In this document: positions 2,845 through 63,698 of the stretch, in pieces
How positions within the stretch are numbered: the first letter of the stretch is position 1
Layout: each line of letters opens with the position of its first letter
Assembly (NCBI GenBank): GCA_965207845.1
Contig: CBDBNU010000002.1
Coordinates: forward strand, 720,323-784,322
DNA length: 64,000 bases
DNA from: Dehalococcoidia bacterium
GTDB lineage: Bacteria; Chloroflexota; Dehalococcoidia; Lucifugimonadales; GCA-2712585
Direction of reading: 5' to 3'
Translations under genes and position numbers: made by a program
The notes under the pieces: model-generated
Told to the model about the DNA's origin: nothing
Databases searched by the model: none
The model's input: the letters and a program-made list of their open reading frames with translations, nothing else

Positions 2845-2940
2845 GGCGTCTATCCCAACCTTGGAACAGATAATTTACCCAACGGAAATAGGGCGGCGAT
2901 GGGGGCTGAATCGGCGTCGCATCGCCAATAGGAGAAAACC

Positions 2941-4119
2941 ATGAACCTTCTCATCAGGAACGTGAGGCTTATTGACGGCAACGGCGGCGACCCCATCCCG
3001 TCGGTGAACGTGGTGGTGGAAAACGGGCTCATCAGCTGGATCGGCGAGGGCAACGTCACGCCTTCGTCCCACCCCCACTACGAGGACATCAACGGCGAGG
3101 ACCTGACCCTCATGCCCGGCACCTTCGACTGCCACGAGCATTTCGCCGGCGACGGCGGCCAGAACGGCGTGATGGCAATGAACGACGAGTCGGAGGAGGT
3201 GCTGCTGGTAAAAGCAGCGGCCAACGCCAAGCGCGCCCTGATGACGGGCCAGACCTCCGCCCGCGACGTTGGTTCCCCCTACGGCATCAGCATTACGCTG
3301 GCGCGGCAGGTGGCCACCGGCGCGCTTCCGGGGCCGCGCATAACCGCCGCGGGACAGTGGATTCAGCGGCCCACCACCTGGCCCTATTCCATGGTCCACA
3401 CCATAGAGACCGCCGAACAGATGCGACAGGTCGTAATGTCCCAGATCGCCCAGGGCGCGGGCCTCATCAAGGTCGGCGCGACGGGCGTCCGGGACGACGG
3501 CACAGACTACGCCACCCTGGGGCCGGAAATCGCCGGCCTCGTGGTGGACCTGGCCCACGTTGCGGGACTGAAGGTCGCCGCCCACTGCACCGGCTTCGTC
3601 GGAGCAACCGAGGCCGTGGAGGCAGGCATCGATTCCATTGAGCACTGCACCAACATCGACGCGCATACGGCGGGCTTGATGGCGGAAAAGGGGACCATTG
3701 CCGTGCCCACCATGTCCACCTGGGACTACCGGCTGGACGCCGCCGTGAGGTGGGGTCTGACCAAGGAGGAGGTCGACGAGTCCGAGTCCCGTAGGGAGGC
3801 CTCCAGGGCCAGCTTCCGCCACATGCTGGAAGCGGGCGTGAAGATTGCCGCCGGTACGGACGCTGGCGGCTCCCCCGTGCGCCACGGGACAATCGTTCAC
3901 GAGATGGAAGTGATGATCGAAGCGGGTTTGACCCCCATGCAGGCCATAATGTCCGCCACTAGCATCGCCGCGGACCTGACAGGGACGCTGGACGAAACGG
4001 GCACGGTGGAGGTCGGCAAGCTGGCGGATCTGATTCTCGTCGACGGCGACCCCCTCTCCGACGTGGGCGCCATCCGAAACGTGTGGGCAGTGTACCAGGG
4101 CGGCCGGAGGATTCGATAA
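2941..4119 (+). CDS. Amidohydrolase family protein (metal-dependent hydrolase)
   Basis: MNLLIRNVRLIDGNGG... then FDCHEHF (HxH metal motif) and AGTDAGG near the C-terminus. AGGAGA RBS 6 nt upstream of the ATG. Confidence 0.85.
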   Translation: MNLLIRNVRLIDGNGGDPIPSVNVVVENGLISWIGEGNVTPSSHPHYEDINGEDLTLMPGTFDCHEHFAGDGGQNGVMAMNDESEEVLLVKAAANAKRALMTGQTSARDVGSPYGISITLARQVATGALPGPRITAAGQWIQRPTTWPYSMVHTIETAEQMRQVVMSQIAQGAGLIKVGATGVRDDGTDYATLGPEIAGLVVDLAHVAGLKVAAHCTGFVGATEAVEAGIDSIEHCTNIDAHTAGLMAEKGTIAVPTMSTWDYRLDAAVRWGLTKEEVDESESRREASRASFRHMLEAGVKIAAGTDAGGSPVRHGTIVHEMEVMIEAGLTPMQAIMSATSIAADLTGTLDETGTVEVGKLADLILVDGDPLSDVGAIRNVWAVYQGGRRIR

Positions 4120-8896: not shown

Positions 8897-10270
8897 TCAC
8901 TCCTCCCCCTCGGCCTCAAGCCCCATCGGAATCTCAAACACGAACCGGCTCCCCCCTTCCGGCCTTCGCTCAGCGCGGATGGCCCCACCGTGGGCTTCAA
9001 CCATCTGCCTCGCAATCGTAAGTCCCAGTCCCGTGCCGCCCGTCGCCCTGCTCCGCGATGGGTCCACCCGGTAGAACCGGTCGAAGATCTGCGCAAGCTC
9101 CTCCTCCGGCACACCCTCCCCGGTGTCCGCAACCGACACACGCACCGAACCTTCCGTCTCTTCCACCGACACCGACACCTCACCCCCTTCCGGTGTGTGA
9201 CGCACCGCGTTGTCCAGCAGATTCCCCAGCGCCTGCGCTATCCGCGTCCGGTCCATCCGCGCTATCGGCAGTTCCGACGGCGCCTCAAGCGTCAACGCGA
9301 TCCCCTTCCTCTCCGCCGCCGGGCGGAACGCGGCTACCGACATTGTTGCCAGCTCGGCCATAGACGCTTCCTGGAAGTCCAGCGAGAGCGATCCCGCGTC
9401 CGCCTGGGCGATGAGGCCGAGGTCTTCCACCAGCCGCCCCAGGTGCAGCGCCTGCTGGTGCGCCACGTCGATGGCCGCGGGTGTGGGCGTCAGGACCCCG
9501 TCGCGCATAGCCTCCAGGTAGCCGCGCACGTTCGTCAGCGGCGTTCGCAGCTCGTGGGCCACGTCGGACATGAGCCTCACCCGCTGCTGCTCCGCCCGTT
9601 GCAGCCGGTCCGCCATATTGTTGAACGTCCGACCCAGCTGCCCCACCTCGTCCGATGACGAGACCTCCACCCGCTCCTCCAGGTTGCCCATGCCGAGCCT
9701 CGCCGCCGCGCCCGTCAGCGCCCGCACCGGGGAGAGTATGCGCCCCGAAAGCACCGTCACCAGCAGCACTCCGCCGAGCCAGGCCCCCAGCCCGGCCCAC
9801 ACCAGCGCCCAGTTCACCGACGACACCACCCGGGAGATCGCGGGCTCCGCCACCTCCGTCTCCACCTGGCCCGGGGCCAGCGACAGAAACCCTATCTCCT
9901 GGTTGCCTGTGCGAATGGGCCGGAATCTATCGGGACCCCGCCATGCAACGGGCAACCGGCCGAAGTCCGCTTGGGAGTCGGCAATCAGACGTCCCTGGGG
10001 GTCCCGCACCACTATCCGGCGGTCATACAGGTTGCCCGCCCGCTCCACGAGGGACTGAATGCCGCTCCAGTTTCGGTTTTGCGAGTACGCCAGGGAGATC
10101 ATCTCCTCCACCCGTGCGGCGCGCGCCTCCTCCAGCCGTTCGGAAAACTGGTCCACCTCCCTGTTGGCAGAATACCCGGTGTAGACCCCAACCGCAGCCA
10201 GGGCCAGACCCAGGGCCAGGGTGAAGCCCAGAATCAGTCGAAACTGGAGTCCCTGAAACCACCTAACCAT
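8897..10270 (-). CDS. Sensor histidine kinase (HAMP-HisKA-HATPase_c)
   Basis: H-box SDVAHELRTPLT, N-box LLDNAVRHTP, G-boxes DTGEGV and GGTGLGL. Two TM helices flank a periplasmic loop of about 150 aa. Start taken at the ATG at 10270 (MVRWFQ...), overlapping the response-regulator stop. Confidence 0.85.
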   Translation of the reverse strand: MVRWFQGLQFRLILGFTLALGLALAAVGVYTGYSANREVDQFSERLEEARAARVEEMISLAYSQNRNWSGIQSLVERAGNLYDRRIVVRDPQGRLIADSQADFGRLPVAWRGPDRFRPIRTGNQEIGFLSLAPGQVETEVAEPAISRVVSSVNWALVWAGLGAWLGGVLLVTVLSGRILSPVRALTGAAARLGMGNLEERVEVSSSDEVGQLGRTFNNMADRLQRAEQQRVRLMSDVAHELRTPLTNVRGYLEAMRDGVLTPTPAAIDVAHQQALHLGRLVEDLGLIAQADAGSLSLDFQEASMAELATMSVAAFRPAAERKGIALTLEAPSELPIARMDRTRIAQALGNLLDNAVRHTPEGGEVSVSVEETEGSVRVSVADTGEGVPEEELAQIFDRFYRVDPSRSRATGGTGLGLTIARQMVEAHGGAIRAERRPEGGSRFVFEIPMGLEAEGEE

Positions 10271-11062: not shown

Positions 11063-11617
11063 TTAGCGCCTAAACTTGCTTCTCCAGGAGGTCTCACTGT
11101 CGGCCCCACCCCGGTCGTCCTTCATTCGTCCTCGTTCCCCTCCCTTGCCCCCGTGACCCCAGCCGCCGAACCGCGGCCCTCCGAACCCTCGATTCATGAA
11201 TCCCGGCCGGCTTTCGAACCACTCGACGTACTCGTCGGCTTCATCCTGGGTTATGAGTTCCTTCTCCACCATTGCGTCCGCCCTGGCCTGCACCGCTTCG
11301 TTAGCCATGTCACCCTTGGCCTGGGCGAGAGCATCCTCCAGGGCCGATTCCTCTACTTCCAGGATTATGGCCACTTCGGCGATGAAGTCTGTGTCCGAGT
11401 CCCAATTCTCCTTGACCGTTGTGAAGGCGTCGGAAACGTCGCTCTCCTCCAGGTTGAGGATCTCCGCCACCCTGGCCGCCAGGCTCTGCCCGTCGGCGGT
11501 GGTCTTTCCGAATCCGCCGCCACCCTTCCCGCCGTGGGCGAGGATCACCCCTCCGCCGATACCCGCCACCATCAGCCCCGCCAGAATTGCCGCTACTATC
11601 CAACCTCTCTTTGACAC
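11063..11617 (-). CDS. Membrane-anchored hypothetical protein with Gly-rich ends
   Basis: N-terminal TM helix, GGKGGGGFG tract, two related acidic helical segments (ARVAEILNLEESDVSDAF and AEVAIILEVEESALEDAL), and a C-terminal GFGGPRFGGWGHGGKGG tract. Sits upstream of the two-component pair on the same strand. Confidence 0.55.
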   Translation of the reverse strand: MSKRGWIVAAILAGLMVAGIGGGVILAHGGKGGGGFGKTTADGQSLAARVAEILNLEESDVSDAFTTVKENWDSDTDFIAEVAIILEVEESALEDALAQAKGDMANEAVQARADAMVEKELITQDEADEYVEWFESRPGFMNRGFGGPRFGGWGHGGKGGERGRMKDDRGGADSETSWRSKFRR

Positions 11618-20147: not shown

Positions 20148-21380
20148 ATGCCCCCAACTCTGACCAGAATTCTGCTTCTGACCTTAGCCGTCGGCATCGT
20201 CGTAGCTTGCGGCGGAGACTCCGAACCGGGCCAGGCCGATGACCACCTGAAAATCGGCCTTGTCCTGAACTTCACCGACTCTCCCGAGGCCTCCCAGGCC
20301 CGCCGGATGGCTTTCGACCTGGCCGTCAAACACCTGAACGAGGCCGGCGGCGTCCTCGACAGGGACGTTGAAGGCTTCACCGTGGACGCCACCAGCGATC
20401 CCGTCGTGGCCCTGGAACGCGTCCTCCTGCTCGTCGATGCTGCCCGCGTTCACGCCATCGTCGGCCCCAACGCCAGCTCCGCATCCCTCCCCGTTGCGAG
20501 ACAGGTCTCCGGCCCTCGGCAGGTGCCGACAATCAGCCCCTCCGCCACTTCGCCCCTCCTCTCCGCCGTGGAGGACGACGACTTCTTCTTCCGCACCGCC
20601 CTCTCCGACAGCGCCCAGGGGCCCGTGCTGGCCCAGGTCAACCGCGACCTGGGCTTCGACAACGTGGGCCTCATCTACCAGAACGACGCCTGGGGTCAGG
20701 GTCTCGCCGAGACATTCCAGGAATCCTGGACGGGCCGGGTGGCCGCCGTTTCCGTAGAGCTTGAGCAGGAATCCTTCCTGCCACAGCTGCGGGAAAGCGC
20801 CGCCAACAACCCCCAGTCCCTCGTAGTCATCGCCTCCGAGTCCGTCGCCCTGCCCCTCGTCAAGGAAGCCGTGGACAGCGGCCTCTACGATAACTTCACC
20901 TTTGGCGACGCCGCCAAGCGGTTCAGCCTGCTGGAGACCGTCGGCGCGGATAATCTCGCGGGCATGCTTGGCACCGCCGGGGAGCCTGCGCCCGAAAGCG
21001 AGGCCACTCGCGCCTGGGAGAGGACTTTCATCGACGAGTACGGAAACCTTCCCCACGTGCCCTACACCAAGGAGACCTACGACGCCGTAATCGCCATCGC
21101 CCTCGCTGCCCAGGCAGCCGGCGCCTTGGACGGAGCCGCCATTCGCGACCAACTTCGCGAAATCGGATCGCCGCCGGGCCAGATCGTGTCCGCCACGCCG
21201 GAGGGAATCAAGGAGGCCCTCGACCTTCTAAGAGACGGGGTAGAAATAGATTACGAAGGGGTCGCCGTATCCGCCGACTGGGACGCCAACGGGGACCTGA
21301 GTCGCGGCTACATCGGCGTCTGGCGCTTCACCGCCGACGGCGACATCGAAGACGTCAAGTCCGTCCTCTTCGAATACTAG
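20148..21380 (+). CDS. ABC transporter substrate-binding lipoprotein (Leu/Ile/Val-binding-protein-like fold)
   Basis: Start at the ATG at 20148 (MPPTLTRILLLTLAVGIVVACGG gives a lipobox). Periplasmic-binding-protein type I-like sequence. No permease or ATPase gene is adjacent. Confidence 0.75.
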   Translation: MPPTLTRILLLTLAVGIVVACGGDSEPGQADDHLKIGLVLNFTDSPEASQARRMAFDLAVKHLNEAGGVLDRDVEGFTVDATSDPVVALERVLLLVDAARVHAIVGPNASSASLPVARQVSGPRQVPTISPSATSPLLSAVEDDDFFFRTALSDSAQGPVLAQVNRDLGFDNVGLIYQNDAWGQGLAETFQESWTGRVAAVSVELEQESFLPQLRESAANNPQSLVVIASESVALPLVKEAVDSGLYDNFTFGDAAKRFSLLETVGADNLAGMLGTAGEPAPESEATRAWERTFIDEYGNLPHVPYTKETYDAVIAIALAAQAAGALDGAAIRDQLREIGSPPGQIVSATPEGIKEALDLLRDGVEIDYEGVAVSADWDANGDLSRGYIGVWRFTADGDIEDVKSVLFEY

Positions 21381-21865
21381 CCGCCGGACTTCTTCCTGCG
21401 CTTGGCCGCGGGCCGCCTCTTCCGTGGGCGGCGCGACGCTTCATATACGGCGATCCAGTCCTCCATCGGCATCTTCCCCACCGCTTCGCCGATGAGCTCC
21501 AGCGGCAGGTCGTCGAGCGTTTTGAAGCGTACGCAGGACTTCCCCATGTTCATCCGCTTCCCCGTCGCCTTGTAGCTGTCCACAAACCACTTCTGGGTCT
21601 CCTGGCTGGCGTAGATGTTCATCAGATGCACCGACACGTAGTTCTTCTCTGACGCTATCGCCGCGTACATCAGCGGGTGCCCGTTGTACGTCTTGGGAAC
21701 GACGGATAGAGGCACGACGTAGGCAATCATCCCGAAGTCCATCACCTCCTCGTACCCCTTGGGCAGGTTCGAAAGCACCACCTCCCGCACCGTCGTGACC
21801 GCCTCCCGACGGTCCTCGCTCAGTTCCTCCAGATACTCTTCAACAGTTGAAGCATTGCTCTTCAT
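21377..21865 (-). CDS. DUF1801 domain-containing protein
   Basis: Start at the ATG at 21865 (GGAGG upstream). ...STVEEYLEELSEDRREAVTTVREVV...NYVSVHLM... is typical of YdhG/DUF1801. Basic C-terminal tail. Confidence 0.7.
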   Translation of the reverse strand: MKSNASTVEEYLEELSEDRREAVTTVREVVLSNLPKGYEEVMDFGMIAYVVPLSVVPKTYNGHPLMYAAIASEKNYVSVHLMNIYASQETQKWFVDSYKATGKRMNMGKSCVRFKTLDDLPLELIGEAVGKMPMEDWIAVYEASRRPRKRRPAAKRRKKSGG

Positions 21866-21914
21866 AGCCAGACCTCCAGGAAATTTCAATCATCTATGTG
21901 TTGATGCCCCGCAA

Positions 21915-22316
21915 TCAGGAACGGGGCGGAACCACCATGCTGCAAGCCGGGCCGTAGGCGCGACTGAGCTTCCGGTCCAACGTCGCCAACGGGCAGTCCA
22001 ACGCCTCCGCCAGCGCGACGTACCATGCGTCGTAGCTGGTCAGGTTGGGCCGCAACTCCCACACACGCTCGGCGAAAGGCGCGAAAGGGAACAGTTCGAC
22101 GTCCAGCCGAAGTAAGCCAGCGTGGGCGAGGGTCGCCTCGATGCGAGAAATTTTCTGCTTATTCTCCAACTGCCGTAAGACATTGGTCGCCTCAACCAAT
22201 GCCAACTCAGGCGCGGCCAGACTGTCCTTGGCAATCATCGATTGCGCCCACAGACCATCGCTCTTGTGCTCCACCAGCGCCGCCACGAGTACGGACGCGT
22301 CGACAACAGTCGTCAC
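21915..22316 (-). CDS. vapC: Type II toxin, PIN-domain VapC family
   Basis: MTTVVDASVLVAAL... (N-terminal acidic D), ...SYDAWYVALAEAL..., ...LATLDRKL. The ATGA start overlaps the upstream antitoxin stop. Confidence 0.85.
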   Translation of the reverse strand: MTTVVDASVLVAALVEHKSDGLWAQSMIAKDSLAAPELALVEATNVLRQLENKQKISRIEATLAHAGLLRLDVELFPFAPFAERVWELRPNLTSYDAWYVALAEALDCPLATLDRKLSRAYGPACSMVVPPRS

Positions 22317-22549
22317 CTACGGCCTTCGTCGCGTGCCCGCAGTATATCCTCCGTCGTCACTTGTGAATTGAATAAGGCCTTACGCTCACGTACCTCTTTC
22401 AGCCACGCGTCTATGGAGGGTTTTGAAGCGATGCGCTCCAATTCCCCACGCAGGAACTCCTGCATGGACTGGCGCTGCCGCGCCGCAAGAGCGGCAAGCT
22501 CGTCCCGAACTCCCTCTGGAACGTTTCTTATGGTTATCTGCACAGCCAT
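22313..22549 (-). CDS. vapB: Type II antitoxin (ribbon-helix-helix, FitA/VapB-like)
   Basis: 78 aa. MAVQITIRNVPEGVRDELAALAARQRQSMQEFLR is an RHH-type N-terminus. 4-nt overlap with vapC. Confidence 0.75.
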   Translation of the reverse strand: MAVQITIRNVPEGVRDELAALAARQRQSMQEFLRGELERIASKPSIDAWLKEVRERKALFNSQVTTEDILRARDEGRR

Positions 22550-22592
22550 GACTGCATTATGCCAGCACAGCAGGCAATGTGCAATCCCACCA

Positions 22593-23063
22593 TCAGAACC
22601 CGTCCCAGCCGGGGATTGCCGCCGCCTGGCGCACCCAATCTTCCATCTGGGCTTCGTCGAGCTCTCCCTCGTAGATGTCCACCCAGCGGGCGTCCGGGTC
22701 CTTCCCGGAACCCGGCGGCTCCGGACTCAGCGACGCGCCTTTCAGGAACGTCACCTTCACGTATCGGGCGAACACGTGGTAGCTGACGAACCACCCCATC
22801 CCTTCCACACCGTACCAGGGGGAGTTCCACCTGACAGCCTTCCTGACGTTCGGCGCCGTCCGCGCAATCAAGTCGTCCAGGCGCTGTCCCAACTCCCGCT
22901 TCCACCCCAGCATCAGGCCGATGTAGGCCTGCACGAAAGCGTCACCGTCGCCCTTGGGAATCTGCGGGTTGCCCCCCGAAAGCAGTTTTGGGTTCTTTAC
23001 CGCCTGCTCCAGCAGTTCCTCCGGCGAGGTCTTGGTGGACCTCCTTGTCCTCCTGCGGGCCAT
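22593..23063 (-). CDS. DUF1801 domain-containing protein (second copy)
   Basis: Start at the ATG at 23063. ...RKAVRWNSPWYGVEGMGWFVSYHVFARYVKVTFLKGASL... follows the DUF1801 core pattern. Confidence 0.65.
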   Translation of the reverse strand: MARRRTRRSTKTSPEELLEQAVKNPKLLSGGNPQIPKGDGDAFVQAYIGLMLGWKRELGQRLDDLIARTAPNVRKAVRWNSPWYGVEGMGWFVSYHVFARYVKVTFLKGASLSPEPPGSGKDPDARWVDIYEGELDEAQMEDWVRQAAAIPGWDGF

Positions 23064-23605
23064 GACTCTCACCCCCACCTGACCTGCGCCTTTCAACTCA
23101 TGCAGGCGCAGTCGAAAACTTGGGTAAAGGATATCCGGCAAACGGGGCGAATGCCAGCCAACGACCGCCGGGTCGCTCGGCCCAGATCGACTCGCTGAGC
23201 CTTAACGCTAGTGCTCGTGGGGTGGTTGACTCCCGCCGGGAGCCTCAGCGTCTTCCACTCAACACCCCGGCTCCCCGATGTTCCCGCAGCACTGGCTCCT
23301 GCACCGAATCTTGATGGCCACGTTCCGGACCATCATCCCCAACCGAACGTGCAACGGCCCTGGATGCGTCCGCAGCATCTTCAGGGACCGAAACAGGCCC
23401 TTGATCATGTCAAGAAGCGTATAGAAGATCATGCCGAGAAGAGGATACACAAACGCAGACCGGCTTGTCTTGGGTGGGGTTGGGGGATCTTGGGGGCCGG
23501 GCGGTAGCAGGACACAGAGCTGATGGCTGATAGTGCCATTCCGGTTAAACCAACTTAGGTACAGTTGGTAGTATAATATGGTCAAAACAACTGGTTGGAG
23601 TTGTC

Positions 23606-23857
23606 ATGCGCGAAGTTCAAGCGACCGAAGCCAAGACGCGCTTGGCCGAACTGCTGAGAGCGGTCGAGAGCGGAGAGACTGTTGCCATCACTCGGCACGG
23701 AAGACCCGTTGCTCACCTGGTTCCCGCCCCGGCCCAAAGACGCGCTAACAGCGCTAAAGCGGTGGAGCGGTTCCGCCGACGCCGCGCCGGGTGGAAGCGC
23801 GTGACGTTCTCCACGGAGGAGATACTCGCTGCGCGGCATCAGGGTCATCGCTTATGA
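23606..23857 (+). CDS. Type II antitoxin, Phd/YefM family
   Basis: MREVQATEAKTRLAELLRAVESGETVAITRHGRPVAHLVP is a canonical Phd/YefM N-terminus. TATAAT and short inverted repeats (CCAACT/AGTTGG) lie just upstream. Confidence 0.8.
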   Translation: MREVQATEAKTRLAELLRAVESGETVAITRHGRPVAHLVPAPAQRRANSAKAVERFRRRRAGWKRVTFSTEEILAARHQGHRL

Positions 23858-24261
23858 GCGGGCTGGTTGTGGATGCGTCAGTAGTCATGGCGTGGCTCTT
23901 CGACGATGAGGAGGAGCCGCGGGCGGATAGGGTTCTAGAACTACTAGTAGAGGATGGGGCGATAGTGCCGCACCTGTGGCATCTTGAGACACGCAACACC
24001 CTCCTGGTCGCTGAGCGGAGCGGGCGTCTTTCCGCCGAAGGGGTACAGGAAAGGCTAGATGCTTTGATGGGTTTGCCCATCCAAACGGATCAGGTACCCA
24101 ATTTTCAGTCCGCCTTTGAACTAGCCAGGGTTCACAATCTGTCCTTCTACGACGCCCTATATCTGGAACTTGCCAAGCGGGAAAGTGCAGAACTAGCAAC
24201 GTTGGATCGAGCACTGAGCCGGGCAGCCGTTGCTGAAAGGGTGGGAGTGTCGATAGCGTAG
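23854..24261 (+). CDS. vapC: Type II toxin, PIN-domain VapC family
   Basis: Start at the ATG at 23854 (ATGA overlap with the antitoxin stop). MSGLVVDASVVMAWL..., ...SFYDALYLELA..., ...LATLDRAL. Confidence 0.85.
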   Translation: MSGLVVDASVVMAWLFDDEEEPRADRVLELLVEDGAIVPHLWHLETRNTLLVAERSGRLSAEGVQERLDALMGLPIQTDQVPNFQSAFELARVHNLSFYDALYLELAKRESAELATLDRALSRAAVAERVGVSIA

Positions 24262-24364
24262 CTTTCGGGTATATGACAGCGGGATTCTAAATAGCTGTTG
24301 TTGTCGGCCAGCAATACAGAGTTGGAGAGTCATCAATCCATCACCCCACATGGGCTCGCCTTCA

Positions 24365-24844
24365 CTACGGTAACCGCGTCCCTAAGATTGTCTTAGAGAT
24401 GCCATGAATCACATTGTTCGTAACTGTCTTTGACGAATCTGCCAATGCATCAAAACCGACAATCCTAATGTTGGGTCTGCTCTGATTCTCTCTTCGTAGC
24501 ACGTCCTTTTGCTTGGCGTTCAGTGAGGATTCTCTTCCAACTACCACCAATCCAGTTGATGTCTTAAATTGAGGGAAAGAACCTGATGCTTCCGCCAAGT
24601 GGGAGCTCAAATAATCTTGATATTCAAGAACTTGATCAATTGCATGTGTGGCATCAGCACTCAAATTGCCACGTCTGGTGACTAGCTTTTTGTCAGGAGT
24701 CTCAATTTCGGCTATCACATAATTGTCATCGTAGGTGCGGATGACGAAATCAGGCTCTAATTTGCCATGTAGGTCTGGCCTTCCCCAGACTTGGAATGCT
24801 CTTGAGTCAAGCAATAGTGGATGCTTCTCAAGAAATTTCTGCAA
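24365..24844 (-). CDS. Shedu SduA-like DUF4263 PD-(D/E)xK nuclease domain (C-terminal fragment; frame is open upstream to 25012 without a start codon)
   Basis: LQKFLEKHPLLLD...LEPDFVIRTYDDNYVIAEIETPDKKL...AIDQVLEYQDY...LVVVGRESSLNAKQKDVLRRENQSRPNIRIVGFDAL. The first usable start is the TTG at 24844. A+T-richer than its surroundings. Confidence 0.55.
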   Translation of the reverse strand: MQKFLEKHPLLLDSRAFQVWGRPDLHGKLEPDFVIRTYDDNYVIAEIETPDKKLVTRRGNLSADATHAIDQVLEYQDYLSSHLAEASGSFPQFKTSTGLVVVGRESSLNAKQKDVLRRENQSRPNIRIVGFDALADSSKTVTNNVIHGISKTILGTRLP

Positions 24845-24912
24845 GGCTGACTCCTTGTTTTCTGCTCCGGCTAGCAGTTCGTCGTATTGTGCTAGGACTT
24901 TGGGGCCAACGG

Positions 24913-25458
24913 CTATTGTTCTTTGAGCGAAGGCGTGGCTGAGATTCCCAATAGCACCGGGATCTTGGAGAGAGAGAGAATCATTAGTGATGTTGACACA
25001 TAGATGCCCGCCTCATTGTCGTCGTCAATACTTAGAATCAACTCATGCAGATGGCTACGAGCTGCTAATGATAGATCGCTCCAATTCCCAACGGCCTTCG
25101 ATACAGCTTGCCTCAATTCGGAATCTTTTACCGTTGATTCAATTGACTTGGGCCCATGTCCTGCAGATGTGCTAGAAAGCAATTGCATCGCCAATGAGAA
25201 GTTCGTAGAGGTTGGTTCATTGAAAGCGTTTTCGACTACTGCCTTGAGGCCATCCTGTCTCCATGCTAATAGGCAATAAAGGGCTGGTGCTTTCAAGAAC
25301 AAGCCGAATGCATTCCCACCATAGTCATTGCGAGCTAATAGTTGAACAGCCAACTTGCCTTCTAGGGTTCCAGATGCAACGCAATCAACTAAGAGAGTCG
25401 TAAGTTCTCTTGGATTGCCTCTTTCGACAAACTCGCGTGCTCGGTCAATCAAAGTCAT
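24913..25458 (-). CDS. Hypothetical helical protein; probable N-terminal module of the split Shedu-like gene
   Basis: 181-aa ORF immediately upstream, overlapping the open frame of the nuclease fragment by about 100 nt. No family recognised. Confidence 0.5.
   Translation of the reverse strand: MTLIDRAREFVERGNPRELTTLLVDCVASGTLEGKLAVQLLARNDYGGNAFGLFLKAPALYCLLAWRQDGLKAVVENAFNEPTSTNFSLAMQLLSSTSAGHGPKSIESTVKDSELRQAVSKAVGNWSDLSLAARSHLHELILSIDDDNEAGIYVSTSLMILSLSKIPVLLGISATPSLKEQ
24968..24979 (-). repeat. (TC)6 dinucleotide tract inside the overlap of the two Shedu-like ORFs
   Basis: Plus strand reads gagagagagaga. Removing one unit fuses the frame of 24913..25458 to the frame of 24365..25012. Confidence 0.9.
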
Positions 25459-25590
25459 CGAGTTATCCTGGCTAAGTTTGGGAGTGAACTACCTAATACT
25501 AGGAGTGGCTTCAAATGACTCCTAGCACCGCCGCGGAAACAGTTAGAATTCGCTACTGGGTCAATCTGGCACGTAAATTAACCAAAAACA

Positions 25591-25617
25591 GGCCCGGCAG
25601 GGTCCGAACCCACGACT
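25591..25617 (-). repeat. 27-nt copy of the 3' end of the tRNA-Met gene (att-like direct repeat)
   Basis: ggcccggcagggtCcgaaccCacgac here versus ggcccggcagggtTcgaaccTacgac at 27115-27141. Same orientation, 2 mismatches. The flanking sequence is not tRNA-like. Confidence 0.7.
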
Positions 25618-25696
25618 GATAACGCTGGTCCACCCGAACTGCGGAATGCGTTGCTTCCTCCTTGGAATCGCGGCCTACACCCGCGACCCCATCAAG

Positions 25697-26980
25697 CTAA
25701 CGGTCACGCGCTACCCAGAAGTCATCAGCCTTCTTGTCAAACTTTCCATTTCCTGCCCTATCGTCGAGCCACACCCAGAACTTGTTCAGCCACCTCCACC
25801 GGAAGTTTCGGATAACAAAACGAGGAATGGCGTATATCCTGCGGGGCGGCTTAGTCCATGCACACATGCGGACGCAGGTGCTGCAGGTAGTCCCGACGCG
25901 GTTCTGGAAGGTCATACACTTCTTTGCATCTACCTTCCAAGAAAGTACGCCGGTTGAATTGTGCTCGTTTAAGGCCTCCAAACTTCGGTTCCCGGTTGTG
26001 ATGGCTTTCGTTCCACACTTCGGGACGCATTTCAGACATGCGTTGCAGAACTCTGTGATACCGGAGTCCACCGCGCCTGCGAATTCCAGCGGAAGGTCGG
26101 TGAAGATCTTGGAAATGCGGCAGCGTGCCCCCACCTTTGGGTTGATTAAAAGGCCATGCCTCCCTAGCTGGCCGAGGCCAGCATCGACAGCCAGGGGAAT
26201 GCTTAAGGCAGTGTCATTAGCCGCGGGAATGGCGTTATACCCCATACCTCGTATGAACTCAGCCATCATCCATAGGGTCGGAGCCATCCGGGCATATGCT
26301 AGTGTGCTGAGTCCTTCAGTAAGGAGGGACGGCGCGTGCTCAGTGCCATCTATGTCCTTGCCCCACTCGTGGAGCATCACCACCACATATTTCATTTCCT
26401 TCGGTATGACCCGAGTCCCATCTCCCAGGCGAATGGGCTGGCTGTGCTCTTCATAACCGGGTTCGTCAGAGAACTTGATGGGGTAGTCCTTCTTCGTCTC
26501 CTCATCAAAGTAATGGGAATACACCCAGCGACGGTCCAACTCAGCGAAGCCTACCTGGTCCGCTCCAAGCACTTGGGCGGCCTTGCGCACAATCTGAGAA
26601 GCTTCTTTGGGCGAAAATTCCGGTCGACCAGTAGGCGCGGGCTCAACCTTGGTTTGCCATGCAGTAGCTCTGGAATCCGCCTGATTCTTTGAGAAGCCCA
26701 TAATCGATAGGAGGGAATCTGCTGCAGAGTCCAAGCCCCAGGCGGGGGCCTCGAAACCGGCGCGTCCCTTCTCCGAAAGCTGTCTCTGCTTGTCCTTTAA
26801 CTTCGCTCGTTCATTCTCGAGGTGAGCATCCCAAACCATCTGCGAGCCTATATGATCTTTCTGATTGAACCGCACGTACGAATCTTGCACTCTGTACATT
26901 TCGGCGGCCGTCACCCGCCCATTCGCGTTAGAATTCTTTTCCGACTGAGATTTGGCGTGACGCCTCAGCTTAAGTTTCAT
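25697..26980 (-). CDS. rdhA: Reductive dehalogenase homologue (RdhA-like), no Tat signal
   Basis: C-terminal Fe-S motifs FCNACLKCVPKCG (CxxCxxCxxxC) and C-x10-CSTCVRMCAW. The central region ...NAIPAANDTALSIPLAVDAGLGQLGRHGLLINPKVGARCRISKIFTDLPL is typical of RdhA. The N-terminus MKLKLRRHAKSQ lacks RRxFLK. Confidence 0.75.
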   Translation of the reverse strand: MKLKLRRHAKSQSEKNSNANGRVTAAEMYRVQDSYVRFNQKDHIGSQMVWDAHLENERAKLKDKQRQLSEKGRAGFEAPAWGLDSAADSLLSIMGFSKNQADSRATAWQTKVEPAPTGRPEFSPKEASQIVRKAAQVLGADQVGFAELDRRWVYSHYFDEETKKDYPIKFSDEPGYEEHSQPIRLGDGTRVIPKEMKYVVVMLHEWGKDIDGTEHAPSLLTEGLSTLAYARMAPTLWMMAEFIRGMGYNAIPAANDTALSIPLAVDAGLGQLGRHGLLINPKVGARCRISKIFTDLPLEFAGAVDSGITEFCNACLKCVPKCGTKAITTGNRSLEALNEHNSTGVLSWKVDAKKCMTFQNRVGTTCSTCVRMCAWTKPPRRIYAIPRFVIRNFRWRWLNKFWVWLDDRAGNGKFDKKADDFWVARDR

Positions 26981-27113
26981 GCCACGATTCCTCCTAGCAG
27001 TTAAGGCTTATCACATTCCGGGGTCTGTTCCGCTGTTTTGAAAGCATCCCGGCAACCAAGAATTCAGCCCCACGGTCCTTGAAGACAATTTGGCGTTTGC
27101 CAGCAGAATTTGA

Positions 27114-27185
27114 TGGGCCCGGCAGGGTTCGAACCTACGACCAACCGGTTATGAGCCGGCCGCTCTACCACTGAGCTACGGGCCC
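27114..27185 (-). tRNA. tRNA-Met (anticodon CAT; could alternatively be the lysidine-modified tRNA-Ile2)
   Basis: Minus strand: GGGCCCG TA GCTC AGTGGTA GAGC G GCCGG CTCATAA CCGGT TGGTC GTAGG TTCGAAC CCTGC CGGGCCC A. All four arms pair, the T-loop is TTCGAAC, and CCA is not encoded. The G1-C72 pair and the weak anticodon stem argue against an initiator. Confidence 0.85.
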
Positions 27186-27309: not shown

Positions 27310-28650
27310 GTGACTTCCACCTCCCAGTCCGTCACCATGGACAAGGTCCTCTCCCTCGCCAAGCGACGCGGCTTCCTGTTCCAGAGCAGCGAAATCTACG
27401 GCGGCCTCAACGCCACCTGGGACTACGGCCCCCTCGGCGCCCAGCTCAAGCGCAACGTCAAGGACGCCTGGTGGCGCTCCATCCTCCAACATCGTGACGA
27501 CGTGGTCCCCTTCGACGCCGCCATCCTCATGCACCCCGACACATGGCAGGCCAGCGGCCACCTGGGCAGCTTCACCGACCCCCTCGTCGAGTGCCGCTCC
27601 TGCCATCAGCGCTTCCGCGCCGACCATATAGACTCCGACAACTGCCCTAACTGCCAGGGCGAGCTCACCGACCCTCGCCAGTTCAACCTCATGTTCAAGA
27701 CCTTCATGGGCGCCGTCGAAGACACTGCCTCGGAGATCTATCTCCGGCCGGAGACCGCCCAGGGCATCTACGTCAACTTCAAGAACGTCCTCTACACATC
27801 TCGCCGCAAGCTCCCATTCGGCATCGCCCAGATCGGCAAGGCCTTCCGCAACGAAATCACCCCCGGCAACTCCACCTTCCGCACCCGCGAATTCGAAATC
27901 ATGGAGTTGGAGTTCTTCGTCAAGCCCGGCTCCGACGACGACTGGCTTCATTACTGGACCGAGCAGCGTATGGACTGGTTCGTCTCCCTCGGTGTCGACC
28001 GCGACAACCTCCGCCTCCGCAAGCACGAGTCCGACGAACTCGCCCACTACGCCAAGGAGGTCTACGACATCGAGTACCGCTTCCCCTGGGGCTGGGCCGA
28101 GCTGGAGGGCATCGCCAATCGCACCGACTATGACCTGCGGCAGCACGCCGACCACAGCGGCCAGGACCTGACCTACTTCGACGACCAGGCGAAGGAGCGC
28201 TACTACCCATACGTCATCGAACCCTCCTGCGGCGCGGACCGGGCCGCCCTCGTCTTTCTCATCGACGCCTACCGGGAAGAAAAAATTCCTCCCAAGAAGC
28301 CCGGCGGCAAGATCGAGACCCGCAGCGTGTTGAAACTCGACCGCTCCCTCGCTCCTGTCACCGTCGCCGTGCTGCCCCTAAGCCGCAACGAGCGACTCGT
28401 CCCCACCGCCCGTCGCGTCCACGAGATTCTCCGCCAGCGCTTCAACACGATGTTCGACGACGCCCAGAGCATCGGACGCCGCTATCGTCGCCAGGACGAG
28501 ATCGGCACCCCCTTCTGCGTCACTGTGGACTTCGACACCATTGACGACGAACAGGTCACCCTGCGCGACCGGGACACCATGGCCCAGCTTCGCATCCCGG
28601 TCAGCCAGATAGTCGACGCCATAGAAGACAAGCTCCGCCACGGCTGGTAG
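27310..28650 (+). CDS. glyQS: Glycine--tRNA ligase (alpha2 dimeric type)
   Basis: ...MDKVLSLAKRRGFLFQSSEIYGGLNATWDYGPLGAQLKRNVKDAWW... is canonical GlyQS. GTG start 7 nt after AGGAG. Confidence 0.9.
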   Translation: MTSTSQSVTMDKVLSLAKRRGFLFQSSEIYGGLNATWDYGPLGAQLKRNVKDAWWRSILQHRDDVVPFDAAILMHPDTWQASGHLGSFTDPLVECRSCHQRFRADHIDSDNCPNCQGELTDPRQFNLMFKTFMGAVEDTASEIYLRPETAQGIYVNFKNVLYTSRRKLPFGIAQIGKAFRNEITPGNSTFRTREFEIMELEFFVKPGSDDDWLHYWTEQRMDWFVSLGVDRDNLRLRKHESDELAHYAKEVYDIEYRFPWGWAELEGIANRTDYDLRQHADHSGQDLTYFDDQAKERYYPYVIEPSCGADRAALVFLIDAYREEKIPPKKPGGKIETRSVLKLDRSLAPVTVAVLPLSRNERLVPTARRVHEILRQRFNTMFDDAQSIGRRYRRQDEIGTPFCVTVDFDTIDDEQVTLRDRDTMAQLRIPVSQIVDAIEDKLRHGW

Positions 28651-28741
28651 CCCATGCGCGTCATCCACTCGCATGTCATTCTGAGTGCAGCGAAGAATCC
28701 CGCTTCGCTTTGCGGTACGTAGCCCATGCGCGTTATCCACT
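28647..28741 (+). mobile_element. 72-bp mini-insertion at the glyQS/sbcD junction: 49-bp hairpin element flanked by a 23-bp direct duplication
   Basis: gtagcccatgcgcgtCatccact at 28647-28669 and gtagcccatgcgcgtTatccact at 28719-28741. The core between them, cgcatgtcattctgagtgcagcgaagaatcccgcttcgctttgcggtac, contains the GCGAAG/CTTCGC stem. Confidence 0.55.
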
Positions 28742-37213: not shown

Positions 37214-37347
37214 CCAAAATCACCCCCACCAGCACTGACGACGCGGGTAGAATCCCCCCGCAATCGCGTCCTGATAGGCACCCGGCGAACGCCTCCCAAG
37301 CCTCATGCACTTCGGATCGCCAACTCCAATGTTACCCTTCTTGACTA

Positions 37348-38310
37348 ATGCTGGCTCGAATTAGAAGCGCGCACCTGCGCCGGCCCTGGCTGGCCATCCT
37401 GGTCCTTTCCGTCGCCCTCGCCGCCGCCGTTTCCGCCTGGCTCCTCCTGGACGACCCCGACGCAACCCTGGGCGAAATCCCCCAGTACAATTCCTTCCAC
37501 GGCGCCAGCGAGTTCGTCATGGGCGAGAACCGGTTCCCCTTCGCCCTCGCCTCTTTCGAGGGCGAACCCCTCGCCGACGCGGACGTTTCCGTCAGCTTCT
37601 ACTACCTGAGAGACTCCGAGTGGGAATTCAGATTCCGCCGCGAGGCCGACTACCGCGAGGTCGAAGGAGTCACCCCCCACCTCCACGACGACGGCTTCCT
37701 TCACAAGCACCTGGACGTACGCGGACAGTATGTGGCGAAGGTCAACTTCCAGAGCACGGGCGTCTGGCAGGCTCGGTTCTCGCTTTCCGTTGACGAGGAA
37801 TCAGCCCCAACCGTCGGCGACCTCGCCTTCAACGTCTTAACCGAACCCACCGCGCCCGGCGTGGGAGAACCCGCGCCCCCTATAGAAACTCCTACGATTC
37901 ACGACGTTGCCAGCATCGACGAGATAGAGACCAGAGACCCCCCCGACGACATGCACGACCTCTCCGTAGCCCAAGCTCTCAAGCAGGAAAAGCCGTTCGT
38001 AGTTGTCTGGAGCGCGCCCATGTTTTGCACCAGCGCCATCTGCGGCCCCGTCCTAGACTCCGCCGTTCGGGTTCAGGAGAAGCTCGGCGACAGGGTTAAC
38101 TTCATACACATAGAGCCTTGGGACCTGAAAATCGCCCGCGAGGAAGGCCGCCTGATTCCGATACGCGAGTTCACGGAGTGGGGATTGACAACCGAGCCGT
38201 GGATATTCGTTGTTGACGCGAGGGGGATCGTGTTTGAACGGTTTGAAGGGCTGGTTACCGACGGGGAGTTGGGAAAGGCGGTGATGGGGGTCCTGACGAC
38301 CGCTTCCTAG
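37348..38310 (+). CDS. Membrane-anchored thioredoxin-fold protein (TlpA/SCO-like, hypothetical)
   Basis: N-terminal TM anchor. C-terminal ...KPFVVVWSAPMFCTSAICGPVLD...FIHIEPW... resembles a thioredoxin-like fold with a paired-Cys motif. Confidence 0.55.
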   Translation: MLARIRSAHLRRPWLAILVLSVALAAAVSAWLLLDDPDATLGEIPQYNSFHGASEFVMGENRFPFALASFEGEPLADADVSVSFYYLRDSEWEFRFRREADYREVEGVTPHLHDDGFLHKHLDVRGQYVAKVNFQSTGVWQARFSLSVDEESAPTVGDLAFNVLTEPTAPGVGEPAPPIETPTIHDVASIDEIETRDPPDDMHDLSVAQALKQEKPFVVVWSAPMFCTSAICGPVLDSAVRVQEKLGDRVNFIHIEPWDLKIAREEGRLIPIREFTEWGLTTEPWIFVVDARGIVFERFEGLVTDGELGKAVMGVLTTAS

Positions 38311-53025: not shown

Positions 53026-55419
53026 CTATGAGCCTGCCTCGGCTTCTGTTGTGCATCGTGCCAAGCGCGATTTCTCGACCCATATTTCGGGAAGCTCTTC
53101 CGCAATGCAGCCAGTGAATTCGTTAACCCCAAGATCCAAGCTTCTGAGATTCACCAGATTGGCAAGCTCTGATGGTATCTCGCCGCTAAAGAAATTCCCC
53201 GAGACATCCAACTTCCTGAGCTTCACCAAGTTTCCCAGTTCGGCCGGTATCTCGCCGGTGAGGTCGTTACCCTGAAGTTCCAATATCTCCAATTTCACCA
53301 ATCGGCCGAACTGAGGAGGTATCTCCCCCACCAGACGATTTGCTCTCAAGTCCAAATCCAACAGGCTTGTGAGATTGCCCAACTCAGGGGGAATGGTTCC
53401 AGTCAATCTATTGCTCCCGAGACTCAATTTCGTTAAGTGGGCGAGGCCCCCCAATTCCGGCGGGATATCACCTGCAAGACCGCTGGCAAAGAGTTCTACC
53501 TGTACAGCCCTCCCAAAGGCATCCGTGGACACTCCGTACCAGGCCCCCGGTGGCGCGTCGCTGGCCCAGTTCCTGCTATATAGCCAGTTCTCTCCAAGAG
53601 TGGCGTCGTAGAGCGCTAAGAGCGGTGGCAAATCCGGTGAGTTTGCCCAGTCTTGGTCAGCAATAGGCCCGCCATGATACTGTCGATAGACAGCACGGAA
53701 TTCTTCCTCGTTCCCCTCCGGGACATTCTTCAAAAACGCATAGAAGATGTGGTCCTCACTATGGTCCAGGAACAAATACCTCTGACCATACAATTCCCGC
53801 AATCCCCCGGATACTGCCCCCGCTCCCAGGACAGAATTTATCCCCAGCAGGAATCGTTCCCCCAGCAATTGGTCGCAGTCCCTGCCGCCAAACAAGGAAA
53901 TGTGAAGCCAGAGACTCTCCCCACATACTCCGTCGGATTCGATGCTTGCCAATCGCTCTTCAAGTGATTCTCCACCCATTTCAGCTTCAACGTGCGCTTT
54001 CAGAAATCTCGCTGTCGCCGTATTGAGCCACCATGGTTCCGGAACTGCGTAGTATTCCCCAATCACCTCCAAGAGTGCCTCCCTCGAAGGTCCCTCTTCA
54101 GGATTCTCCGCCCACAAAATCGACCTTAGATAGCATTGGTCCAATCTGCTGCCGCTACATGAACTATCATTAAACGCCGCGTGTCTGGCATTCCAGAATT
54201 CCGGCTCGACTAGGAGGAGAATCACGTCGCCAAGGGGCAGCGGCACTTCCATAAATCCTTCCATCGCTCGCAACCCTTCATCTAGAGTCGCCAACGTGTC
54301 GTCGTCCGAGAGAATTGGAGTCTGACTGACAACGGCAAGTCCCACTGAGCCGGACAAGGGAAGCTCAATAGTAGTGGATACAACGTAGTGTTCCTCAACC
54401 AGCGCCATGGTAAATGCACCTAGACCCCTGCTTTCGTGAATTGCATATATCAGCGCCGCTTCTAGATCATCCAAACCATCCTCAAACCACGCCTGGTTGT
54501 TCAATTTGTCCAATAATTCAGCATCTTCCTGCTGGCCGGATAGATGCATGATATGCAGAGAATTCAAAGCATCCGCATCTCTTTGCATAAACGGCGCATC
54601 CATGAAAGGTGACCTCACTACATGCCAGGTCAATACCATGTCATACTGGGCAAGACGCTCAATACTACCTATCGCCCTGGACTCTGCCGCCGTAATCCCA
54701 TCCAGGGCCCACGAGAAGCCTAGAACTGCCTGCGCCAACTCCGGGTCATGGTTCCATAACCTTGGTATCGTGGCAATCACGGATAATTCACTATTCGAAA
54801 TCTCGGCATTGTCTACCCACGGAAAACTCAGTACTAATGATGTTAGTTCCATGTCGATATACCATAAGGCAGTTAGCGCCTCGACGGGATATGCTTCTTC
54901 AACGGTTATCCCATCTGCAACCCAGGGCAACGCATATACTGCAGCCGGACTCCCAGGTTCCGGGGTCGGCTCAGGAGTCGGTTCCGGCGTCGGCTCTGGC
55001 GTGGGCTCAGGTGTTGGTGCTGGTGCCGGCTCAGGCGTCGGCTCTGGCGTGGGCTCAGGTGTTGGTGCTGGTGCCGGCTCAGGCGTCGGCGTAGGCTCAG
55101 GAGTTGATTCCGGTGTCGGCTCCGGCGTAGGCTCAGGCGTAGGTGTCGGCGTTGATTCCGGTGTCGGCTCAGTCGTCGGCTCCGCCGTGGGCGGTGCCGT
55201 TGGTGCCGGCGTAGACTCCGGGGTTTGCTCCGGCATCTCCATCAGTATGGGAGATGGTGTCGAGGTCGATACTAGGTCTGAATTGGATGAGTCTCTCGGT
55301 ACAACAGTACCGGTGGGTGGGAGATCATTCTCGCAGGCTGCAAATACAATCAATGCCAACAATTGCAACAAACAAACAACAACTATATGCGGAATACGCC
55401 TTCTCATGCCAATTAACAT
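53026..55419 (-). CDS. Lipoprotein paralogue: Pro/Thr/Glu linker + degenerate peptidase-MA-like core + plant-type LRRs (copy A, HExxH lost)
   Basis: The first 80 aa or so are nearly identical to copy B, after which the two diverge strongly. The position equivalent to FHELGHYY reads LEVIGEYY, and WLTEGTA reads WLNTATA. C-terminal LRRs of the form NxLTG(T/E)IPPELGN. Confidence 0.75.
54989..55084 (-). repeat. Perfect 48-nt tandem duplication inside the Pro/Thr/Glu linker of copy A
   Basis: The unit gtcggctctggcgtgggctcaggtgttggtgctggtgccggctcaggc occurs twice (54989-55036 and 55037-55084). It encodes repeated [16 protein letters not shown]. Confidence 0.8.
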
Positions 55420-63668: not shown

Positions 63669-63698
63669 AAACTGAGTATTCACTGAATCCGACAACGG

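Follow-up and report, generated by a model that had tools for sequence, protein, structure and literature searches.

In Dehalococcoides, genomic islands accumulate in tandem at ssrA, where they are bounded by the gene itself and by 20-bp repeats of its 3′-end and where insertion falls in the T-loop (PMC3146451). These islands are low in GC, frequently carry a reductive dehalogenase gene (rdhA) as cargo and measure ~12 kb, and a serine recombinase of ~540 aa (DsiB), which was compared with staphylococcal Ccr, lies next to the left attachment site, attL (PMC3146451). About half of the 31 ssrA islands have no integration module, and it was suggested that these are either cis-mobilizable or fixed (PMC3146451). 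Here, we describe an islet in a 64-kb stretch of a Dehalococcoidia genome (contig CBDBNU010000002.1, positions 720,323 to 784,322; hereafter the window, in whose own numbering coordinates are given). In this islet, a single rdhA homologue lies between a tRNA gene with the anticodon CAT, tRNA(CAU), and a distal 26-nt copy of the 3′ part of that tRNA. We read the repeat as the scar of site-specific integration at the 3′ part of tRNA(CAU), with accretion of further islets at the copy, and give this reading a probability of roughly three in four. The islet is real, but of a familiar kind, and the nearest described system is that of the Dehalococcoides ssrA islands, including their integrase-less members (PMC3146451).

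We compared the window with loci (L numbers, with coordinates in each locus's own numbering) from SAR202-type Dehalococcoidia metagenome-assembled genomes, and with sequencing runs (X numbers) that include sponge and viral metagenomes and of which X1 and X2 represent the source sample. The islet and the ssrA islands belong to one class: they share a tandem arrangement behind a stable-RNA target, repeats of the target's 3′-end, insertion in the T-loop region, rdhA cargo, low GC and members without an integrase, and a recombinase found at tRNA(CAU) in one relative (L163) scores best against CcrB, much as DsiB was likened to Ccr. The two differ in target, which is tRNA(CAU) here rather than ssrA, although the same cassette lies at the tmRNA gene of one SAR202 genome (L134); in repeat length, 26 to 35 nt rather than 20 bp; and in size, one gene in 1.5 kb as opposed to ~12 kb. 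Moreover, the RdhA described here has neither a twin-arginine translocation (Tat) signal nor an accompanying rdhB, defense genes are also cargo at the site, and the DsiB-type module next to attL is absent from the window. The host, a marine or sponge SAR202 bacterium of the aerobic type, is not an organohalide respirer.

Other described systems share parts of this picture. cis-Mobilizable elements (CIMEs) are islands flanked by attachment (att) sites but devoid of integrase and transfer genes, and are found beside integrative and conjugative elements in Streptococcus thermophilus. Like them, the islet keeps attL- and attR-type repeats of the target's 3′-end, has no recombination or transfer genes and shows tandem accretion; unlike them, it has no cognate integrase-bearing element in the window, and its distal site carries two mismatches. 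As far as sequence tells, the islet fits the description of a CIME, with mobilization in trans putative. A self-sufficient integrative element is defined by its integrase, and the islet has none. Tandem growth beside a tRNA is reportedly also a property of the "additive" flexible genomic islands of Alteromonas and Pseudoalteromonas from the Rodriguez-Valera group, in which strains likewise differ at a tRNA-side hotspot by small, often defense-related cassettes separated by tRNA-derived repeats; those islands usually keep integrases and have larger cassettes, whereas the islets seen at tRNA(CAU) in the close clade here all lack a recombinase. With SCCmec and its Ccr recombinases, the site shares a best match to CcrB (the L163 enzyme), integration at the 3′-end of a gene that is conserved and single-copy, short direct repeats and composite or tandem cassettes. 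However, CcrB as the best NCBIfam match of the L163 enzyme reaches only 139 bits against a family cutoff of 900, so this recombinase is not a Ccr orthologue; in addition, the target is a tRNA instead of rlmH, the recombinase gene overlaps the target, and no CcrA-like partner was seen. Integron cassettes also gather as single-gene units at one site with the recombinase encoded outside the cassette, but this is an analogy only, as the units here have their own leader and promoter and tRNA-derived boundaries and show no attC-type hairpin, IntI or attI.

The rdhA islet and its tRNA-derived repeat

ARAGORN and Rfam (RF00005, 72.8 bits) agree on one tRNA in the window, the tRNA(CAU) gene at 27114-27185 on the minus strand, which is the integration target in our reading and whose 72-nt sequence recurs without change in six further Dehalococcoidia genomes. 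The end of its variable loop, the T arm and the 3′ strand of the acceptor stem make up the proximal, attL-type block (27116-27141, minus strand). This block recurs 1.5 kb away as the distal, attR-type copy (25591-25616, minus strand) in the same orientation, over 26 nt and with 2 mismatches. An earlier note on this DNA had described a same-orientation copy of 27 nt with two mismatches; orientation and mismatches hold, and the coordinates prove to be one base out of register, leaving 26 nt. No such match arose in 100 dinucleotide-preserving shuffles of the window, and no further copy of the 3′ part of the tRNA occurs in the window at up to five mismatches. The copy corresponds to positions 45-70 of the 72-nt tRNA, leaving the final two tRNA bases unmatched (GGGCCTG in the copy vs GGGCCCA in the tRNA). 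One of its mismatches turns the T-loop into TTCGGAC, at the invariant A58, and the copy is thus not part of a functional tRNA. The sequence beyond it is not tRNA-like, as the earlier note had stated: ARAGORN finds no tRNA there, and the Rfam matches in the window at E ≤ 10 are confined to the real tRNA and a sub-threshold Plastid-ycf2 match on its opposite strand. By both programs, then, the copy does not belong to a second tRNA-like gene.

Between the tRNA and its copy lie a 133-nt leader, one open reading frame (ORF) of 427 aa and an 80-nt trailer, and the rdhA homologue is the only credible gene among them, in agreement with the single-gene content first proposed. The leader (26981-27113, minus strand) is non-coding, begins directly at the 3′-end of the tRNA and ends in a conserved AGGAGG ribosome-binding site. 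Examined as a riboswitch or other structured RNA, it matched no Rfam family and showed neither a conserved structure (-1.85 kcal/mol) nor covariation; it looks like a promoter and 5′ untranslated region with an invariant AGGAGG. The sole gene (25697-26980, minus strand) encodes a protein with Pfam Dehalogenase and Fer4 domains that scores 172.4 bits against NCBIfam TIGR02486, above the curated cutoff of 160.35, and matches PceA (4uqu) with E=1.7e-49. Two Fe-S motifs, CNACLKCVPKC and C-x12-CSTCVRMC, can be read in its translation. Its N-terminus, MKLKLRRHAKSQSEKNSNANG, shows no Tat signal and is without a hydrophobic region, and no rdhB or other small membrane ORF lies beside the gene. Respiratory-type enzymes are recognized by a Tat signal and rdhB, and the absence of both suggests that this RdhA is a cytoplasmic-type, non-respiratory homologue. 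Exact-protein look-ups for RdhA and for the neighboring glycyl-tRNA synthetase (GlyRS) matched no record. The trailer (25617-25696, minus strand) runs from the rdhA stop to the distal copy, and alignments across the stop, the trailer and the copy are 95% identical to L087 and 88% to L088.

The islet is also compositionally lighter than its surroundings, as the earlier note had proposed. The GC content of rdhA is 54.5% against 62.5% in the flanks, and its GC content at third codon positions (GC3) is 0.63 as compared to ~0.75-0.90 in neighboring host genes. The gene lies ~6-8 GC points under its flanks in the clade of the window and matches its flanks in many other genomes.

On the rdhA strand, the copy is followed by a T-run (25578-25587), and the two together form a terminator-like hairpin (25613-25588, then TTTTT) 80 nt past the rdhA stop. 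Such an arrangement would be expected if the copy, whatever its origin, had been retained to terminate rdhA transcription, its tRNA-derived end and the T-run having been exapted, and the T-run recurs in L088/L161. We nevertheless consider this role doubtful: a scan of the region gives 3 such sites where 3.3 are expected by chance, folding of the 3′ region gives no more than ordinary stability (z = -0.94), L087 has no T-run, and L089 keeps rdhA despite having lost most of the copy.

The identity of the tRNA itself deserves comment. Its acceptor stem (GGGCCCG/CGGGCCC) is fully identical to that of the tRNA-Ile(GAT) of L114 (9789-9865), and it carries the pairs C4-G69, C5-G68 and G27-U43, which we take to be typical of lysidine-modified tRNA-Ile2. 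The gene first called tRNA-Met may thus encode tRNA-Ile2, decoding AUA rather than AUG. The host flank 5′ of the tRNA is glyQS (glycyl-tRNA synthetase; 27310-28650, plus strand), identified by Pfam and syntenic in all close relatives, and an sbcD-like gene, likewise recognized by Pfam, lies on the same side. A 23-nt direct repeat (28647-28669 and 28719-28741, 22/23 identical, 72 nt apart) covers the glyQS stop and the sbcD start, so that the sbcD 5′-end is duplicated between the genes. This intergenic stretch is ~47-55% identical to close relatives, and both bordering genes are conserved.

The same site in related genomes

Relatives were found with the exact tRNA pattern and with rdhA and SbcD queries, and 10-kb flanks were taken; loci named in pairs are L087/L160, L088/L161, L089/L157 and L142/L158. 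Among the matches listed for a GlyRS query, the best was 70% identical, and synteny with the tRNA was seen in L001 and L002 only. At the occupied sites, rdhA lies directly past tRNA(CAU) in L087/L160 (repeat of 31 nt, 1 mismatch), in L088/L161 (35 nt, 1 mismatch) and in L089/L157, where the repeat has decayed, and in L142/L158 an extra 1.3 kb separates tRNA and rdhA and no copy is recognizable. Other genomes carry different cargo at the same tRNA. An NgoMIV-type restriction-modification (RM) pair takes the place of rdhA in L159 and L201, and in L162 a single GmrSD-type nuclease gene is enclosed by the tRNA and by 58 nt that repeat the tRNA's 3′ part with 2 mismatches. In L083, L086, L081 and L163, the tRNA has an encoded CCA and is followed by unrelated sequence. 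The encoded 3′ CCA is lost in the rdhA-occupied genomes (TCA, TTA, CTT) and kept at unoccupied sites.

Both the empty sites and the alternative cargo that the earlier note had proposed to look for are therefore present in relatives. The sequence (A)ACTGGA(C/T)AAAAT(C/T)AAGAAC..TCAC..TGAGG comes straight after the tRNA in L159 and L083 and recurs as the flank behind the distal copy in L160, from which the inserted unit is seen to consist of the tRNA-like repeat, the leader, rdhA and the trailer. Additional unoccupied tRNAs are those of L081, L086 and L163. This comparison bears on the possibility that the copy arose by local partial duplication of the tRNA, through slippage or unequal exchange, and that rdhA is native to the locus. 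The window contains no recombinase and the islet is common to several species, both of which a local duplication would accommodate. It would not accommodate the empty/occupied pair with an identical flank, the same tRNA and repeat bracketing an unrelated gene in L162, the recurrence of the cassette at other RNA genes (at tmRNA with a repeat, in L134), the deviant composition of the islet, or the nesting of L159, L162 and L201 within the clade with no rdhA at the site. This explanation was already disfavored, and we regard it as highly improbable.

The distribution of the islet is patchy. In a tree of GlyRS and SbcD, the rdhA-occupied genomes are not monophyletic and rdhA is scattered over both subclades; L159, L201 and L162 are equally close (GlyRS 88-92% identical) and have no rdhA at tRNA(CAU). 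L161 has rdhA and its 95%-identical sister L159 the RM pair, and L158 has rdhA where L201 has the RM pair. The RM pairs, an NgoMIV-type enzyme with an N6/N4 DNA methyltransferase, lie at 5744-7953 in L201 and 5982-8242 in L159, which belong to different subclades. The two restriction enzymes are very similar by eye, pointing to a long-standing polymorphism or to exchange of the locus as a whole. The rdhA islet with its repeat is common to L160, L161 and several sponge strains, and the islet occurs in at least three other species-level genomes, indicating that it is old and not a recent arrival in the source strain. The earlier interpretation of tRNA and copy as an integration footprint is thus backed by the empty/occupied pair in relatives, but integration of rdhA was not a recent event in this strain.

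Variation is concentrated outside the copy, where the window carries a strain-specific islet with a split sduA gene of the Shedu defense system (24351-25590, minus strand; ORFs 24913-25458 and 24365-24844). With a GC content of ~46% and GC3 of 0.44-0.45, this segment is richer in A+T than the rdhA islet, again as the earlier note had it. The C-terminal half matches Pfam SduA_C/DUF4263 (3e-17) and PADLOC SduA (3.3e-19). The two halves lie in different frames, and a single frameshift within 24916-25012, an interval that includes a (GA)n run at ~24968-24980, would join them; the gene is broken as assembled, and at a depth of 3.8-6.4 this may be an assembly error. The Shedu segment is present in X1/X2 only, has zero depth in X3, X6, X9, X11 and X16, and is absent from L089. 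In contrast, contigs of three further sponge samples match the window at 96-97.5% identity over the rdhA islet and the copy, and homology to the window ends at 25581 (X6), 25591 (X9) and 25593 (X11). The variable segment starts at the outer edge of the copy in L160, L161, X6, X9 and X11. Beyond that edge, the window has the Shedu pseudogene, L088/L161 an unrelated 201-aa ORF, and L087/L160 purC-like and HAD genes; L089 has no insert, with rdhA and the decayed copy followed by VapC. Homology with the Shedu-less L089 resumes at 24299-24345 (blastn, 47 nt, 74%), which marks the outer boundary of the slot and places the strain-specific segment at ~24351-25590. The outer edge of the copy is therefore a hotspot where other small islets come and go, and the serial accretion suggested before is borne out by a variable segment that starts exactly at this edge and by a Shedu segment limited to the source sample. 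A GAGCCCA motif at 24351-24357, by the homology boundary, was considered as a remnant of a third repeat and dismissed as a coincidence-level hint, its alignment score lying under the control means. The junction GGGCCCA/TTTTT(T)G, where the slash marks the boundary, is common to copy and Shedu in the window, to the copy in L161, to tRNA and GmrSD gene in L162 and to tRNA and a two-ORF segment in L158, which hints at one type of incoming element.

Additional tRNA(CAU) loci came from metagenome contigs; among these (n=21), none has rdhA and one (L241) has a recombinase. A 29-nt att core found no match among viral contigs. In L237 (1208-1236) and L253 (212-240), a 45-nt partial copy of tRNA(CAU), from anticodon loop to 3′-end and not within a tRNA, adjoins a 124-aa Cys-rich HNH-like protein and may represent an att site for a different kind of element.

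The conserved outer flank of the slot is a pair of Phd/YefM antitoxin and PIN (VapC-type) toxin (23606-24261, plus strand; Pfam), which also adjoins the slot in L089/L157, L088/L161 and L201. It is part of a block (21377-24261) in which two DUF1801 paralogues are interspersed among two PIN pairs, ribbon-helix-helix/PIN at 21915-22549 and Phd/PIN at 23606-24261; the block has a GC content of 58-62%, a little under that of the host, and its copy number and order vary in relatives, L160 having an extra DUF1801 and a PIN fragment. Elsewhere in the window, two large leucine-rich-repeat proteins of 829 and 797 aa (49823-52312 and 53026-55419, minus strand; GC3 0.55-0.56) are of the eukaryote-like kind reported from sponge symbionts and probably mark another foreign segment. 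Further small foreign islets may be represented by the low-GC3 (0.47-0.53) ORFs at 56108-56512, 61029-61889 and 63411-63770, one of which has a weak PLD-like nuclease domain.

Recombinases and the origin of the islet

The earlier note had found no integrase with the islet, and this holds for the whole 64-kb window by sequence, profile and tblastn searches. The islet has a single ORF and no integrase inside. Using XerD, gamma-delta resolvase and two SAR202 tyrosine recombinase fragments as queries, phmmer found no tyrosine or serine recombinase in the window; nor did iterated profiles built over 3.8 Mb of related loci. A tblastn search of the window with the L163 enzyme matched only the stretch of the tRNA itself. 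Two weak matches prove to be an amidohydrolase (2932-4116) and an unrelated protein lacking any recombinase domain (37345-38307), and none of the low-GC3 ORFs of the window is a recombinase.

The wider search for an integrase that had been proposed thus finds nothing in the window, and it does find serine recombinases on the same tRNA elsewhere. In L163 (5794-7461) and L241 (3587-5176), tRNA(CAU) faces a convergent gene for a large serine recombinase (529-555 aa) with Resolvase, Recombinase and Zn_ribbon_recom domains. The last ~19 codons of the gene (GGPGRVRTYDQPVMSRPLCH, then the stop) overlap the tRNA on the opposite strand: they correspond to tRNA positions 15-72 in reverse complement, with the stop codon in the D arm. 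Remnants of the recombinase C-terminus, extending 12-25 codons past the tRNA overlap, follow the tRNA or its copy in L083, L086, L159 and L162, and L160 and L093 hold flank sequence homologous to this remnant flank. Together, these genes and remnants indicate that tRNA(CAU) has repeatedly hosted serine-recombinase elements. The 58-nt repeat of L162 begins exactly past the position of the recombinase stop codon, as an attP embedded in the 3′-end of the recombinase gene would give. The repeat of the rdhA unit begins at tRNA position 44-45, not 15. The same class of enzyme may have inserted the rdhA unit.

The repeat, the empty/occupied pair, the alternative cargo, the position of the breakpoints and the lack of a recombinase in the window are observed; the responsible enzyme, the sequence of steps and any remaining activity of the site are inferred, as follows. 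A 1.5-kb unit of leader, RdhA gene and trailer would have entered when a tRNA-like segment on the incoming DNA recombined with the chromosomal tRNA; the incoming copy would complete the tRNA, and the displaced original 3′-end would be the 26-nt copy now on the far side. A plausible agent is the class of enzyme found on tRNA(CAU) in relatives, the CcrB-like large serine recombinases encoded by genes that run into the 3′-end of the tRNA. The unit's recombinase may have been lost later or never have been carried, and because the unit encodes none, it could not move by itself. It would now be a decayed or at most cis-mobilizable islet, inherited vertically and by recombination among sponge-associated SAR202 lineages, its present spread occurring mainly together with its flanks. 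Newer islets of one or two genes, mostly for defense, would have been added or swapped at or next to the displaced copy; in the window this would be Shedu, now frameshifted.

Divergence data speak to the spread of the islet. Synonymous divergence (dS) between the window and L160 is 0.09 for rdhA, 0.27 for glyQS and 0.60 for sbcD, and the corresponding values for L161 are 0.21, 0.44 and 0.64. Because rdhA is less diverged than its neighbors, the common ancestor of the islet is younger than its surroundings, pointing to gene flow. The same values would fit an inert, ancient scar at which variation (rdhA, Shedu, RM, GmrSD, unknown ORFs) comes and goes by homologous recombination in the two conserved flanks (glyQS-tRNA and toxin-antitoxin/DUF1801), making the locus a replacement-type island with no site-specific activity now. 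In favor of this explanation are the gradual climb of dS from rdhA through glyQS to sbcD, the occurrence of rdhA and RM states in both subclades with a divergence like that of housekeeping genes, a window without recombinase, and a copy that is degenerate in the window and decayed in L089. On the other hand, the breakpoints of five independent relatives lie at or within ~10 nt of the copy's outer edge instead of being scattered over the flanks, the near-perfect 58-nt repeat around another gene in L162 implies a recent site-specific event, and intact serine recombinase genes sit on tRNA(CAU) in L163 and L241. We therefore view an inert scar as possible but somewhat unlikely.

Several points weigh against integration at tRNA(CAU) with accretion at the copy. 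With neither a recombinase gene nor a fragment of one in the window, the proposed agent is drawn from relatives only. The repeats differ in length (26-35 nt for rdhA, 58 nt for GmrSD), so that several element types or recombinases may be involved. Owing to the stepwise rise in dS, homologous recombination that includes the flanks explains the spread of the islet at least equally well. No excision joint or empty-site contig was found among the assembled contigs of the source sample (depth 4-6), and no excision joint among the contigs of X1, X2, X9 and X16, assembled contigs (depth 4-25) being prone to drop rare variants. The two mismatches of the copy, one of them in the T-loop, may end its use as a substrate. 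A third copy bounding the Shedu segment has no statistical support, the best alignment of 24344-24376 to the tRNA 3′ part scoring below the mean of shuffles and real-sequence controls; the earlier note had likewise failed to find a third repeat near 24262-24364. Finally, a single integration fails to explain the mismatched boundaries of rdhA in L093, where the left end is tRNA-Ala and the right end is GGCCCACCA with the kind of flank that the same genome has at its tRNA(CAU) site (L083); this suggests a rearrangement between att-bearing sites.

The rdhA cassette behind other RNA genes

The rdhA homologue is 80-96% identical in ~70 SAR202 loci and occurs in ~38 upstream and 25 downstream gene contexts among 62 complete loci. 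Its leader of ~135 nt is conserved in sequence in many of these, across different upstream RNA genes. Where an RNA gene is present, the leader starts within a few bases of its 3′-end, which lies 126-151 nt before the start codon, and the two are co-oriented. The intact RNA gene before the cassette is tRNA(CAU) in the clade of the window, tRNA-Ala(UGC) in L093, tRNA-Ile(GAU) in L114 and tmRNA in L134, and in L109 only a 3′-end fragment resembling tRNA-Ala(GGC) (25/28 match) stands there, the remainder of the gene being missing. In L090, L094 and L099, what precedes the leader is a shorter vestige ending in CCA, with a match under the 21/28 level that exceeds shuffles. Downstream copies of the tmRNA end were scored at 22/28 in L134, 21/28 in L125 and 20/28 in L131, the last equal to the shuffle maximum, and the tmRNA-linked repeat of L134 spans 27 nt with 5 mismatches and is located after the gene. 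No downstream repeat was detectable for the tRNA-Ala (L093) and tRNA-Ile (L114) cases. Some rdhA loci also carry a hairpin repeat, GTCATTCCCGCGAAAGCGGGAATC (with variants such as TCGTTCCCGCGAAGGCGGGAAC), which flanks the gene in L100 (~9795-9828 and 11357-11390) and lies downstream of it in L106, L121 and L092; it looks like an element of the repetitive extragenic palindrome (REP) or miniature inverted-repeat transposable element (MITE) type of SAR202 genomes.

This pattern is the one aspect of the locus for which we see a slim chance of something beyond the familiar kind of island. Leader and rdhA might form a gene cassette that is still mobilized in trans, an outside recombinase recognizing tRNA-like 3′-ends (T arm and acceptor, ending in CCA) and capturing this promoter-bearing cassette repeatedly behind tRNA and tmRNA genes. 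The cassette has the same start and orientation behind four intact RNA genes and the tRNA-Ala-like fragment; the protein stays highly conserved across so many upstream contexts; the window, L158, L161 and L162 have other single-gene islets with the GGGCCCA/TTTTT(T)G junction at the tRNA or its copy; and 11 of 62 loci have a recombinase gene or pseudogene in the vicinity of rdhA. Small tyrosine recombinase fragments, truncated or frameshifted, stand directly beside the cassette in L147 (11310-11528, minus strand), L127 (9210-9735, plus strand) and L109 (8926-9612, minus strand), and in the 3.8 Mb of loci 4 of 7 tyrosine recombinase matches fall within 2.5 kb of rdhA. We nonetheless think such a cassette system quite unlikely. 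No circular form, excision joint or trans-acting enzyme was identified, a downstream repeat is found only for tRNA(CAU) and tmRNA, and most loci have neither a tRNA nor a fragment beside rdhA. Given the sequence specificity of known serine and tyrosine integrases, this would take several enzymes, and the adjacency could equally come from rdhA being frequent tRNA-proximal cargo of unrelated islands. Were it real, SAR202 bacteria would shuffle catabolic and defense genes in an integron-like manner with the ends of stable-RNA genes as docking sites, and the system might, with as little likelihood, also cover other single-gene islets with the GGGCCCA/TTTTTG junction.

Integration at tRNA(CAU) with accretion at the copy remains the reading we prefer. 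The pattern known from Dehalococcoides, in which rdhA travels on small, often integrase-less islands at stable-RNA genes, extends to the distant SAR202 bacteria of the sea and of sponges. The tRNA(CAU) by glyQS is a concrete hotspot at which related symbiont strains differ by Shedu, GmrSD, an NgoMIV-type RM pair and unknown ORFs, and it is useful for strain typing and for the study of phage pressure in sponge microbiomes. One conserved rdhA cassette at several RNA genes, moreover, offers a testable handle on the exchange of catabolic genes in these abundant, uncultured bacteria.

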